This document shows, piece after piece, positions 35,148 through 38,543 of a stretch of 64,000 bases of DNA (the first letter of the stretch is position 1; every line of letters starts with the position of its first letter). Source of the stretch: a phage; the sequence record PQ724393.1. One strand, 5' to 3'. The notes under the pieces are model-generated. The model worked only from the letters and a program-made list of their open reading frames with translations, searched no databases and had not been told where the DNA came from. Both the position numbers and the translations under genes were made by a program.

Positions 35148-35612
35148 TTATTTGATTTGTTTAGCAGACCAGATACGGTCTTTGATGATTTTCTGAATAT
35201 CTTCAACATACTCTAAGTCGTGAGCATGCGGATTATCTTTGAAGCTATGTGCTCGTGCCAGTTTCTGGCCTTCTGTTTTGATTACTAAAAGCTCTTTAAG
35301 AATTGCTTCATACTTAGAAATGATTCCTTTAGCGATATTTTTTTCTTGAGCGGCTTTAGGGTCCGCTTTTGACGCAGGTGCTTTACCTGTAGCTTTCTGG
35401 AACAATTCACCTGATGCAGCTAGGCTTTTAAAAACTCGGCTAACAGTATTAGCATTAGTAAAACCTTCGGCTTTAAAATCTTTAATAAAACGGAAACGTT
35501 CTTCATCAGAGGCGTCTTTGTAAGAATATTTACCTGCTTGAATTGCTGCAATCGCGGCGGCTTTTACATCTGAACTAGATTGTTCGGTCAAAAATTCATT
35601 GTAAGTTTTCAT
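35148..35612 (-). CDS. Internal-protein-like head protein with capsid targeting sequence (154 aa)
   Basis: N-terminus MKTYNEFLTE-Q; Lys/Ala-rich; preceded by AATAAATA late-promoter-like box. Confidence 0.55.
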   Translation of the reverse strand: MKTYNEFLTEQSSSDVKAAAIAAIQAGKYSYKDASDEERFRFIKDFKAEGFTNANTVSRVFKSLAASGELFQKATGKAPASKADPKAAQEKNIAKGIISKYEAILKELLVIKTEGQKLARAHSFKDNPHAHDLEYVEDIQKIIKDRIWSAKQIK

Positions 35613-35652: not shown

Positions 35653-35680
35653 CAAAAAGCCCCAACCTTTCGGAAGGGGC
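35653..35680 (-). terminator. Rho-independent terminator (minus strand) downstream of tRNA cluster
   Basis: GCCCCAACCTTTCGGAAGGGGC hairpin, near-duplicate of 35002-35030 hairpin, followed on minus by U5. Confidence 0.6.
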
Positions 35681-35731
35681 CATGCCTTGCGGTAACCTTG
35701 TCGGGGTTCCACCTGCTAGGCAAGTGTTTGT

Positions 35732-35823
35732 ACGAAACGCCAGGATTCGAACCCGGTTATTAAGCAGTTGACGCTACTCAATATTTTTAAAAGGCCATAT
35801 CTCGACCATATCCGAACGTTCCG
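35732..35823 (-). ncRNA. tRNA-like element (possible type II tRNA or tRNA-like 3' domain of a small stable RNA)
   Basis: Canonical T-arm CCGGG-TTCGAAT-CCTGG and a 7-bp acceptor-like pairing CGGAACG/CGTTTCG 91 nt apart; D and anticodon arms could not be folded by eye; no encoded CCA. Confidence 0.3.
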
Positions 35824-36062
35824 TCAAAAACGCTACTCGGCTTACGGCAAAGATATTTCCTCGAATCGATAATTAGGTGCGCCGTTTCTGCTGTGATGTA
35901 AGGGGACATTAACAGATCGTAAAGATTTGTTAATGCCAGTCCTTACTCAGGGAACATCAGTCCGACGACTTACCGGTAGCGACCCGGTTTCTTGTTTGTT
36001 GCGCCGGTGAATGCTGGTAATCAGTCTTCATACGACGGCTTGACTATATAATAGTCTTCATT

Positions 36063-36137
36063 TGGTATCCCGCCCTGGGATCGAACCAGGACCGCAAACT
36101 TAGAAGGATCGTATGCTATCCATTACACCAGCGGGAC
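36063..36137 (-). tRNA. tRNA-Arg (anticodon UCU)
   Basis: Minus-strand GTCCCGC...CCTTCTAAG...GGTTCGATCCCAGG-GCGGGAT-A-CCA; anticodon loop CUUCUAA, T-loop, encoded CCA. Confidence 0.75.
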
Positions 36138-36142
36138 ATAGT

Positions 36143-36219
36143 TGGTGACCCGGACCAGATTTGAACTGGTAACCTTTCCCTTATGAGGGGACTGCTGCTA
36201 ACCATTGAGCTACAGGGCC
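36143..36219 (-). tRNA. tRNA with CAU anticodon (Ile2-type or Met)
   Basis: GGCCCTG...anticodon loop CUCAUAA...AGTTCAAATCTGGT-CCGGGTC-A-CCA; T4 encodes a tRNA-Ile at the corresponding position. Confidence 0.7.
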
Positions 36220-36224
36220 TTAAT

Positions 36225-36491
36225 TTAAATTACAAATCCAGCAGGGGCATTATCATCTTTAGCCATGTGCTGAATTGTATGATAAGTCATTTCTTCAGGA
36301 GCAACCAGATAAGCCGCAACGTTAACTAGTGGAATTATTTTTGGTTTAGCGAACGTGCTATCAGAAATTGCCATAAAGGGCTCGCCGTCGGTCTCAACTT
36401 CGCCAAATTGGCACTCGTAAGAAATAGAACAACGTTTGGTGGTGGTTGTCTTGGTTTTAGGGTCATAAAAAGCTAATTTTAATACTAACAT
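36225..36491 (-). CDS. Hypothetical protein (88 aa)
   Basis: ORF directly downstream of tRNA cluster. Confidence 0.45.
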   Translation of the reverse strand: MLVLKLAFYDPKTKTTTTKRCSISYECQFGEVETDGEPFMAISDSTFAKPKIIPLVNVAAYLVAPEEMTYHTIQHMAKDDNAPAGFVI

Positions 36492-36669: not shown

Positions 36670-36960
36670 TCATTGTGGCCACATATTAATGTAATCAAGT
36701 TTAATAGAAGCAATCTTCAAAGGATTTTTAAAGATGTCGTATTCGACCAATCCATTTTCAGTTGCAGTATAAAAAGTAAAATTAACAGAATTATAACGAT
36801 GACTGTTAACTTTGAGTTTAACGTCGCTTGAACTACGGCCAATATTAACCTGTTGAACATCAAGCACGGCATCTTTGCCAAAGTTGCGAATCAGTAGCTC
36901 TGCTGCAACCTGGTCCGAATTATAGCCATTCTCTGGATTAGTAACTTTAACGTATAGCAT
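36670..36960 (-). CDS. Hypothetical protein (96 aa)
   Basis: ORF. Confidence 0.45.
   Translation of the reverse strand: MLYVKVTNPENGYNSDQVAAELLIRNFGKDAVLDVQQVNIGRSSSDVKLKVNSHRYNSVNFTFYTATENGLVEYDIFKNPLKIASIKLDYINMWPQ

Positions 36961-37596: not shown

Positions 37597-38543
<947 letters not shown>

Follow-up and report, generated by a model that had tools for sequence, protein, structure and literature searches.

What is encoded in the stretch without open reading frames that adjoins the two tRNA genes of phage record PQ724393.1? An initial annotation, made from the sequence of the 64,000-nucleotide stretch analysed here (the window), had recognised only two clear tRNAs, versus eight in T4, and had proposed that the adjoining interval 35700-36062, described as lacking an ORF, encodes either counterparts of two small stable RNAs of T4 or a degenerate type II tRNA. 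ARAGORN called exactly two tRNA genes over the window, Rfam model RF00005 called the same two, and the homologous T4 locus has eight, in agreement with the first of these statements. The second also held: neither strand of 35700-36062 carries an ORF of at least 60 aa, the longest being 40 aa. The region is more stably folded than shuffled sequences (z = -4.9; 0 of 100 shuffles as stable). ARAGORN labelled tRNA(CAU) as Met. Its sequence identifies it as the ortholog of T4 tRNA-Ile, and by analogy with T4 it is presumably read as isoleucine after lysidine modification of the anticodon.

Phage T4 encodes two small stable RNAs, rnaD and rnaC, that have been known since the 1970s. A megablast search matched 758 phage records, and the T4 records under the match annotate either rnaC and rnaD or "species 1 RNA" and "species 2 RNA" (NC_000866, X03016). 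The ORF-free stretch aligns base for base with the rnaD and rnaC genes of these two records, with identities to T4 of 136/139 (97.8%) for rnaC and 104/117 for rnaD, alongside 75/75 for tRNA-Arg. For the flanking protein Trna.2, identity to the T4 counterpart is just 48%, and conservation is thus far higher in the RNA genes than around them. The arrangement beyond rnaD and rnaC (gene order, trailer and terminator) is also that of T4. Both RNAs are orthologs of already known T4 RNAs, as the initial annotation had suggested. Its interval requires adjustment at both ends: the last 30 nt (35700-35730) are a conserved 3' trailer that is part of neither RNA, and approximately 66 nt adjoining tRNA-Arg have no T4 counterpart, a feature that had been missed.

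In this Dhakavirus-like T-even phage, the locus makes up the distal portion of a minus-strand tRNA operon of the T4 type (Table 1). We are highly confident of the overall explanation, in which the operon runs tRNA-Ile(CAU), tRNA-Arg(UCU), rnaD ortholog, rnaC ortholog, trailer hairpin and intrinsic terminator, and which takes in the proposals on biogenesis, function and the extra element made below, each at its own strength. No late-promoter motif TATAAATA was found within 5 kb upstream of the locus, and matches to sigma-70-like promoters at the locus were at chance level only. Neither rnaC nor rnaD matches any Rfam family, and a literature search for a function of either RNA found none. In T4, the species 1 and species 2 RNAs accumulate late and are visible on northern blots (PMC9697503), the species 1 RNA being stable at approximately 140 nt.

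Table 1. Features of the tRNA and small RNA locus, given as positions in the window.
Feature	Position	Strand	Evidence or detail
tRNA(CAU)	36143-36219	-	ARAGORN; RF00005 50.9 bits; one substitution relative to T4 tRNA-Ile
tRNA-Arg(UCU), CCA encoded	36063-36137	-	ARAGORN; RF00005 48.8 bits; identical to T4 tRNA-Arg
Extra element without T4 counterpart	35998-36059	-	66-column T4 gap in alignment
Hairpin GACUAU-UAU-AUAGUC in extra element	36042-36056	-	Fold
Hairpin GCCG...CGGC in extra element	36003-36039	-	Fold
rnaD (T4 species 2 RNA) ortholog	35876-35991	-	T4 alignment; covariance model R1, 142.9 bits; RNAalifold and pair counts
rnaC (T4 species 1 RNA) ortholog, 139 nt	35731-35869	-	T4 alignment; RNAalifold; pair counts; complementary loops
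rnaC acceptor-like stem	35862-35868 with 35733-35739	-	Fold
rnaC long hairpin	35792-35861	-	Fold; loop UUGACG at 35822-35827
rnaC 10-bp hairpin	35758-35783	-	Fold; loop CGUCAA at 35768-35773
rnaC T-arm CCGGGTTCGAATCCTGG	35740-35756	-	CCGGG-UUCGAAU-CCUGG; loop agrees with consensus GTTCRANYC
Conserved 3' trailer hairpin, between rnaC and terminator	35685-35726	-	T4 alignment; fold
Intrinsic terminator GGCCCCUUCC-GAAA-GGUUGGGGC, then UUUUU	35654-35681	-	Local fold approximately -18 kcal/mol

The terminator, which the initial annotation had placed at 35653-35680, was recovered as a hairpin followed by a U-run (35654-35681). It is homologous to a T4 stem-loop annotated as a potential terminator in X03016, and a simple scan missed it because its stem contains two U.U mismatches. 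In phages without rnaC the trailer hairpin lies directly 3' of rnaD (loci L067, L070, L071, L073 and L074).

The canonical T-arm and 7-bp acceptor-like pairing reported in the initial annotation belong to rnaC alone, an assignment that it had not made. The T-arm stands as described. The acceptor-like pairing (CGAUUCG/CGUUUCG) does span seven positions, but only five are Watson-Crick pairs and the two central ones are U.U mismatches. The predicted fold makes rnaC a four-way junction that resembles a tRNA without being a cloverleaf; its acceptor-like stem and T-arm together reproduce a tRNA top half. The stem ends in U-ACA here and in U-CCA in Marfavirus, where the 3' end is encoded as ...CGUUCCG-U-CCA.

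The initial annotation had named covariation across related phages as a check, and this analysis, using 21 distinct rnaC sequences from several phage genera, backed the fold. RNAalifold returned 46 pairs, 21 of them with compensatory changes. Across the 21 sequences 91% of cells were paired, compared with 37-47% when the partners were slid, and 26 of 52 pairs were changed on both sides, compared with 16.5 +/- 1.9 in shuffles and 5-10 after sliding. The changes include an acceptor pair that is A-U in one lineage and G-C in another. T4 rnaC (NC_000866, 70908-71046) occupies the same position after rnaD and has the same predicted fold. Of the three substitutions that separate the orthologs, two fall within stems without breaking standard pairing (U-A to U.G and G-C to G.U) and one turns a G.U pair into G.C; none is expected to alter function.

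These data bear directly on the degenerate type II tRNA, which would be a decaying pseudo-tRNA no longer under selection. The T-arm, the seven-position acceptor-like stem with its U-ACA or (in Marfavirus) U-CCA end, the location in a tRNA cluster and a hairpin that adjoins the T-arm on its 5' side, in the place of a long variable arm, would all fit such a relic. However, neither ARAGORN nor Rfam, at the gathering threshold or with E up to 10, places a tRNA or tmRNA model over 35700-36062; thus the earlier failure to fold a complete cloverleaf was correct, and no tRNA accounts for the T-arm. A hairpin of approximately 60 nt stands where a D-arm would be, and in place of a 5-bp anticodon stem with a 7-nt loop there is a 10-bp stem with a 6-nt loop. 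Moreover, the 97.8% identity to T4 (against 48% for the flanking protein), the compensatory changes in half of the pairs and the conservation of both loops and both U.U mismatches across genera indicate purifying selection on a specific non-tRNA fold, not decay. We consider a decaying tRNA very improbable, and that part of the initial annotation is not supported. A tmRNA was likewise rejected, as it was called by neither program and there is no tag reading frame.

Among non-decoding RNAs, tRNA-like domains are found in tmRNA, in the tRNA-like structures of plant viruses and in YrlA, a bacterial Y RNA. As in these molecules, the acceptor-like stem of rnaC, stacked on the T-arm and with its NCCA-like 3' end, would present a tRNA top half to RNase P or to the CCA-adding enzyme. 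rnaC differs from them in having no sequence or model match (ARAGORN tmRNA search, Rfam) and no tag frame, in the two conserved U.U mismatches of its acceptor stem, and in a body made of two hairpins with complementary loops.

The loops of the two rnaC hairpins, UUGACG and CGUCAA, are exact complements and can form 6/6 Watson-Crick pairs in all 21 sequences. They are invariant except in Marfavirus (phages F48 and Marfa), which was found by a distant blastn search of the phage collection and where they read UUGGCG and CGCCAA. This joint change of both loops argues for loop-loop pairing in rnaC; the basis is exact complementarity together with an event in a single lineage, the other five pairs never varying and hence being uninformative. 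Scans of IMG/VR (uncultivated-virus contigs) and of metagenomes for further variants returned invariant loops only, and an rnaC-specific pattern had no match in 185,579 bacterial and archaeal genomes. Kissing interactions are well known from the 6-nt loops of TAR-TAR* and from ColE1 RNA I/RNA II. Likewise, rnaC has two 6-nt loops that are fully Watson-Crick complementary and show a compensatory double change. In contrast to these complexes, both loops lie in one 139-nt molecule, and the pairing is predicted, with one covarying lineage. It could also be intermolecular instead of intramolecular.

Read 5' to 3', rnaD consists of a hairpin (ACCGG/CCGGU), a 7-bp basal stem (GUCGUCG/CGGCG(C)AC), an invariant internal loop (GACUGA/GAAA) and a variable central hairpin, before a 3' end reading ...GGCGCACC. 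The fold is supported by a U-A to A-U swap at columns 36/106, in addition to other changes. An alternative register for the inner stem (CUGAUG/CAGCAG) was rejected, since covarying columns 36 and 106 fit the register given by RNAalifold. Model R1 also finds diverged rnaD-like RNAs at 18.7-30.8 bits in Marfavirus, in Enterobacter phage ZX14 (Kanagawavirus) and in three uncultivated-virus contigs. Their alignment has 95.7% paired cells, with changes on both sides in 13 of 22 pairs; these figures lean towards the modelled structure because the alignment was fitted to the model. A candidate pairing between an rnaD loop and rnaC (CGCUAC/GUAGCG) was also discarded, as the match is no more than a 6-mer and its rnaC half is not preserved in EcS1, Kosakonia 305 and L059.

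T4 rnaD (NC_000866, 71053-71171) has the same 5' hairpin, basal stem, internal loop and 3' segment, and follows tRNA-Arg in the same order; 13 of 117 aligned positions differ, all within the central hairpin. The two genes also differ at their ends. The 3' end here is ...CACCU, whereas T4 encodes ...CACCA. At the 5' side, 66 nt separate the CCA of tRNA-Arg from the conserved GAAACCGGG, compared with one or two nt after the CCA in T4, and the mature 5' end of rnaD may differ from that of T4 because of this intervening element. Elsewhere among the phages rnaD comes after another tRNA-Arg or the stop codon of an ORF, so a 5' end next to the CCA of tRNA-Arg is not universal.

The intervening element is present in only 27 of approximately 805 related phage records, always between tRNA-Arg and rnaD. 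Its sequence suggests that it may be a shortened second copy of rnaD that has lost the central domain and decayed. When the rnaD covariance model was run over 2 kb, the element was the second-best match (10.4 bits, E approximately 0.02), in a full-length alignment with 76 central positions skipped; this E value is roughly calibrated, and unrelated matches in the same scan had E values of 0.04-0.14. The blocks AAGYCGUCG, GACUGA, CAGCA and CGGCGCA occur in the element in the order in which they occur in rnaD. Pairwise scores exceeded those of shuffled sequences against the rnaD core alone, at z = 0.8 to 4.3 over three gap settings, with values of 3 to 4 only under the looser settings and the comparison being post hoc.

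The element may instead have no kinship with rnaD and be a scar left by recombination, or else some small mobile or filler sequence. We take this reading seriously without favouring it. The covariance-model match is marginal, and in local alignment with full-length rnaD the element did not beat shuffled sequences (127/1000 and 171/2000 scored at least as high). A 9-nt direct repeat (ATGAAGACT, at 36053-36061 and 36023-36031) suggests slippage or illegitimate recombination. The element is also recent, being near-identical in 27/27 records, too little variation for a covariation signal. Set against a scar are the extended order of parts, which follows rnaD throughout (GAA, hairpin, AAG, CGUCG, GACUGA, CAGCA, CGGCGCA, tail), and the rank of the element as the best non-self match of the rnaD model on either strand. 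Furthermore, it sits exactly at the rnaD 5' junction, the complete rnaD that follows it retains the AAACAAGAAACC leader of other lineages, and its 3' tail, GCAAC, is that of a diverged rnaD-like RNA (locus L051).

Both RNA families lie inside or adjoin tRNA clusters in several Tevenvirinae genera. EcS1 has rnaC between tRNA-Phe and tRNA-Trp; in Melville and COW86c the neighbours of rnaC are tRNA-Trp and tRNA-Gly, and in ZX14 it lies 3' of tRNA-Met. In PSTCR6, rnaD is found between tRNA-Arg and tRNA-Ile. Some phages precisely lack rnaC. The records of F48, Marfa, NM4.3 and Ursula place a "hypothetical protein" CDS on top of rnaC, and many T4-like records have one across the region.

Several GenBank records thereby imply that the stretch encodes small proteins, a proposal to which we give practically no credence. 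Such CDS features over homologous sequence, and ORFs of 27-40 aa on both strands, are what can be said for it. Against this, genera differ by paired substitutions in stems and by the exchange of whole hairpins while loops stay invariant, and the T4 records annotate RNA species, which northern blots detect (PMC9697503). Many of the "hypothetical protein" annotations over these RNA genes are flagged here as spurious.

For two RNA genes within a tRNA operon, we propose that the host tRNA-processing machinery would cut rnaD and rnaC out of the polycistronic tRNA precursor. RNase P would cleave at the 5' end of rnaC and thereby free the 3' end of rnaD, to be followed by 3' trimming and possibly CCA repair. 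The two loops of rnaC would then kiss, locking the body of the molecule, and the resulting compactness would explain the stability of the RNA. The extra element could be released as an RNA of approximately 65 nt, or could remain as a 5' extension, making rnaD approximately 185 nt.

Any function of rnaC and rnaD would be accessory, since some phages lack rnaC and the T4 tRNA region is not essential for phage development (SegB paper, PMC2330249). Our preferred conjecture on function, although we think it somewhat unlikely, makes rnaC a tRNA mimic that takes no part in decoding and instead titrates or recruits some protein that recognises the top half of tRNA; the effect on fitness would depend on the host. 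In rnaD, the invariant internal loop and the basal stem would be the active parts. A fuller version is decidedly unlikely as it stands: rnaC, with its two invariant U.U mismatches and an intramolecular 6-bp kissing lock, would serve together with rnaD as a decoy or adaptor for a host tRNA-handling factor (such as a defence nuclease that targets tRNAs, or a processing enzyme), giving an advantage that depends on the host strain, and the Dhakavirus clade would add a centrally deleted rnaD paralogue as a third small RNA.

Alternatively, the two RNAs may have no role in trans and act in cis, as structural modules of the tRNA operon that direct processing or protect the precursor's 3' end against exonucleases, persisting only as by-products. 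The constant association with tRNA clusters upstream of a terminator, the clean loss of rnaC in some phages and the non-essential T4 tRNA region (PMC2330249) agree with this proposal, which we nevertheless judge unlikely. Protection requires a stable fold only, yet from genus to genus the stems change and certain unpaired or loop nucleotides never do: UUGACG, CGUCAA, the AAAAU junction and the tandem U.U in rnaC, and GACUGA/GAAA in rnaD. In EcS1, Melville and COW86c, rnaC lies between tRNAs and not at the 3' end of the operon. In addition, when phage BW1 was evolved on E. coli ECOR34, a single rnaD SNP arose in all populations (PMC12685909), and this convergence during host adaptation suggests a phenotype.

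Sequenced decades ago (X03016), rnaC and rnaD belong to the longest-standing puzzles of T4, and their occurrence in this phage is in itself ordinary. The comparison yields covariation-backed folds for both RNAs, a candidate loop-loop pairing in rnaC and a range that extends over several Tevenvirinae genera. It also brings together natural variants, namely phages without rnaC, rnaD central domains of three unrelated kinds and a putative truncated extra rnaD-like element. Combined with the convergent rnaD mutation (PMC12685909), these variants could guide work with deletions and compensatory mutations.

The stretch 35700-36062 encodes counterparts of the two small stable RNAs of T4, rnaD (species 2 RNA) and rnaC (species 1 RNA). 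Its longest ORF on either strand is 40 aa, in agreement with the initial annotation, which had described it as ORF-free; it folds more stably than shuffled sequence (z = -4.9), and a permissive Rfam scan (E up to 10) returned no known RNA family. The anatomy previously read there was also recovered, namely a canonical T-arm (CCGGGUUCGAAUCCUGG), a 7-position acceptor-like pairing (CGAUUCG with CGUUUCG, interrupted by two central U.U mismatches) and a terminator consisting of a hairpin and a U-run, so that the initial observation holds in all its details. When the region was compared with 50,697 phage records by megablast, 758 matched; almost all were enterobacterial T-even phages, with Escherichia phage fDHCT2 the closest (99.8%). 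T4 records annotate the matching stretch as rnaD and rnaC, base-by-base alignment with exact mapping gave the identities tabulated below, and the terminator and the trailer (the segment between rnaC and the terminator) are common to the window and T4. The leading idea of the initial annotation, counterparts of the T4 RNAs, is thus right, and the region is a rediscovery of known RNAs. Its alternative of a degenerate type II tRNA is unsupported; tRNA likeness is confined to the top half of rnaC, which has neither a D-arm nor a 7-nt anticodon loop. The relatives with exactly the same arrangement belong to Dhakavirus (WG01, KIT01), a genus other than that of T4.

Features of the distal tRNA operon and its surroundings (window coordinates)
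Feature	Position	Strand	Remarks
96-aa ORF	37597-37887	(-)	10-residue motif close to start
Trna.2 homolog	36670-36960	(-)	48% identity to T4 Trna.2
88-aa ORF	36225-36491	(-)	phrog_14864, function unknown
tRNA(CAU)	36143-36219	(-)	ARAGORN; Rfam tRNA model; T4 tRNA-Ile with one substitution
tRNA-Arg(UCU)	36063-36137	(-)	ARAGORN; Rfam tRNA model; 75/75 identical to T4
rnaD	35876-35991	(-)	104/117 identical to T4; all differences in central hairpin
rnaC	35731-35869	(-)	136/139 identical to T4
rnaC acceptor-like stem	35862-35868 with 35733-35739	(-)	7 positions
rnaC AGG/CCU stem			3 bp, running on into long hairpin
rnaC 10-bp hairpin			immediately 5' of T-arm
rnaC T-arm	35740-35756	(-)	canonical
Trailer	35685-35726	(-)	hairpin; conserved with T4
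Terminator	35654-35681	(-)	hairpin and U-run
154-aa ORF	35148-35612	(-)	directly downstream of terminator

The minus strand carries every gene of the locus. As initially counted, there are only two tRNAs: ARAGORN found two genes over the whole 64-kb window and the Rfam tRNA model agreed (48.8 and 50.9 bits). Missing relative to T4 are six tRNAs (Gln, Leu, Gly, Pro, Ser, Thr) and segB, a homing endonuclease gene, the latter from between the window's two tRNAs; variation of this kind is documented for T-even tRNA regions (PMC2330249). The 88-aa ORF, which replaces the T4 Gln-Leu-Gly-Pro-Ser-Thr subcluster, showed no similarity to T4 Trna.2. The Trna.2 homolog itself lies upstream of it and is only 48% identical to its T4 counterpart, so conservation is far stronger in the RNA genes than around them. 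Past the terminator, where the first T4 gene is e.8 and no counterpart is annotated, the window has the 154-aa ORF, which matches phrog_2280 (a family of unknown function) strongly and the PHROG 'internal virion protein' (phrog_7857, E = 7e-4) weakly at its N-terminus. This N-terminus, MKTYNEFLTE, is similar to the sequence that targets T4 internal proteins to the capsid. The motif of the 96-aa ORF matches that same targeting sequence, and this ORF therefore probably encodes an internal protein of the IPI type, with translation truly starting at the internal ATG.

The fold of rnaC was derived from 21 distinct sequences from Tequatrovirus or Dhakavirus, Kagamiyamavirus (EcS1), Kanagawavirus (ZX14, Kosakonia 305), Karamvirus (PS49), Moonvirus (NM4.3), Gelderlandvirus (Melville), Marfavirus (F48, Marfa), Edwardsiella phage PEi20 and uncultivated viruses. 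RNAalifold on 17 of these predicted 46 pairs, with compensatory changes in 21. Across all 21 sequences, a 52-pair structure had a standard pair in 91% of cells, compared with 37-47% when partners were slid, and 26 double-sided pair changes, compared with 16.5 +/- 1.9 after shuffling and 5-10 after sliding. The predicted structure of rnaC is a four-way junction. In its acceptor-like stem the third pair alternates between A-U and G-C, and the long hairpin has an unrelated replacement sequence in one group of genera. The two adjacent mid-stem U.U mismatches are invariant in 21/21 sequences while a neighbouring pair covaries, and from this pattern they look like a selected recognition feature. ZX14-type RNAs (Enterobacter phage ZX14, L005:1200-1339, and loci L013, L043, L051 and L083) have the T-loop UGCAUGC rather than the canonical UUCGAAU, and their T-stem and remainder are conserved despite the altered loop; this lineage therefore has no strict need of a tRNA-like T-loop. 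Marfavirus rnaC ends in ...CGUUCCG-U-CCA, whereas T4 and the window have ...CGUUUCG-U-ACA, and the encoded CCA fits a tRNA-like 3' terminus.

The loops of the long hairpin (UUGACG) and the 10-bp hairpin (CGUCAA) are exact reverse complements, an outcome with a chance of 4^-6 for two given 6-mers in one register. Both are invariant among the 21 sequences outside Marfavirus, even where the stems are wholly rewritten. In Marfavirus, the sole exception, they read UUGGCG and CGCCAA, such that an A-to-G change in loop 1 is matched by U-to-C in loop 2 (pair 46-103: 19 A-U, 2 G-C); the loops were read directly in F48 and Marfa, among 24 records at least 96% identical to F48. Since this covariation is one lineage event, it is suggestive rather than conclusive of loop-loop pairing, which could be either an intramolecular kissing interaction or dimerisation.

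For rnaD, the fold rests on 18 distinct Tequatrovirus-type sequences. All have the same 5' hairpin (ACCGG-GUCGCUA-CCGGU), a basal stem in which GUCGUCG pairs with CGGCG(C)AC, and an invariant internal loop that sets GACUGA across from GAAA; in their short inner stem, U-A is swapped for A-U. At least three versions of the central hairpin (alignment columns about 46-93), none of which can be aligned with another, occur in rnaD genes that are nearly identical elsewhere (L017/L071/L082, L026/L067/L073 and window/T4), suggesting that this domain may be replaced like a cassette. With a covariance model built from the Tequatrovirus-type sequences, diverged rnaD-like RNAs were detected in two annotated phages, Marfavirus F48 and Enterobacter phage ZX14 (Kanagawavirus), where they lie upstream of rnaC, and also in uncultivated-virus contigs L008, L032 and L051, at 18.7-30.8 bits. 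In the combined alignment, which was fitted to the model and so favours the structure, 95.7% of cells pair and 13/22 pairs show double-sided change.

rnaC and rnaD are independent modules. In Providencia phage PSTCR6, rnaD lies between tRNA-Arg and tRNA-Ile and no rnaC was seen within the surrounding 2.5-kb region. Five T4-like IMG/VR contigs (L067, L070, L071, L073, L074) are natural rnaC deletion variants, with rnaD followed directly by the trailer (…GGCGCACC-GAA-CACUUGCC…) and rnaC precisely absent. The trailer hairpin, retained in these phages, could serve in processing, as a site for it, or could belong to the terminator region.

The window carries an insert of ~66 nt, absent from T4 and predicted to form two hairpins, that separates the tRNA-Arg CCA from the conserved GAAACCGGG of rnaD. 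Among about 805 related records, just 27 contain this insert, at a constant position and with nearly identical sequence. The insert is also carried by rnaC-less L070 and L071. Its blocks (GAA, hairpin, AAG-CCGUCG, GACUGA, CAGCA, CGGCGCA-AC) follow the order of rnaD minus the central domain. When the rnaD model was run over 2 kb on both strands, the insert was its best non-self match (10.4 bits, E about 0.02), aligning full-length with 76 central positions skipped. Support for this link is weak: unrelated matches in the same scan reached E 0.04-0.14, and plain alignment with full-length rnaD was no better than with shuffles. Alternatively, the insert could be a recombination scar, as its 9-nt direct repeat (ATGAAGACT) would allow. 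We lean towards a decayed extra copy of rnaD.

Many rnaC/rnaD homologs lie under 'hypothetical protein' CDSs in GenBank, including L085:616-753 (Klebsiella phage F48), L091:318-455 (Marfa), L088:242-415 (NM4.3), L089:262-372 (Ursula), L007:1232-1360 (Kosakonia 305) and many Tequatrovirus records, some with annotated ribosome-binding sites. Given the covariation within the RNAs, such gene calls are very likely spurious.

The comparisons establish orthology, boundaries and folds, and show linkage to tRNA clusters in several genera. A maturation route can be proposed from this anatomy and from the processing of T4 tRNAs, in which RNase P cuts dimeric and multimeric precursors (PMC11143913). The tRNAs and rnaD/rnaC would share one transcript; RNase P would recognise the acceptor and T-arm of rnaC and cut at its 5' end, thereby releasing the rnaD 3' end. 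Exonucleases would then trim to the structured cores, whose compact folds would confer stability.

Both RNAs are classed as late (PMC9697503), and the literature assigns them no function (PMC3014915; PMC9697503). The sole functional clue, a hint, comes from a T4-like phage evolved on E. coli ECOR34, in which a single rnaD SNP arose in every population (PMC12685909). Tentatively, rnaC might mimic a tRNA without decoding, binding some factor that recognises the top half of tRNAs and bringing a host-dependent benefit; we rate this as our best guess, though at well below even odds. That the RNAs serve only as cis-acting processing or stability modules seems less probable still, and unpaired nucleotides that stay invariant from genus to genus count against a purely structural role. 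The rest of the probability falls to something not yet imagined. The covariation-backed folds, candidate kissing loops, wider distribution and truncated extra rnaD-like element added here leave the category of the RNAs unchanged, and serve anyone reopening the old question of what rnaC and rnaD do.
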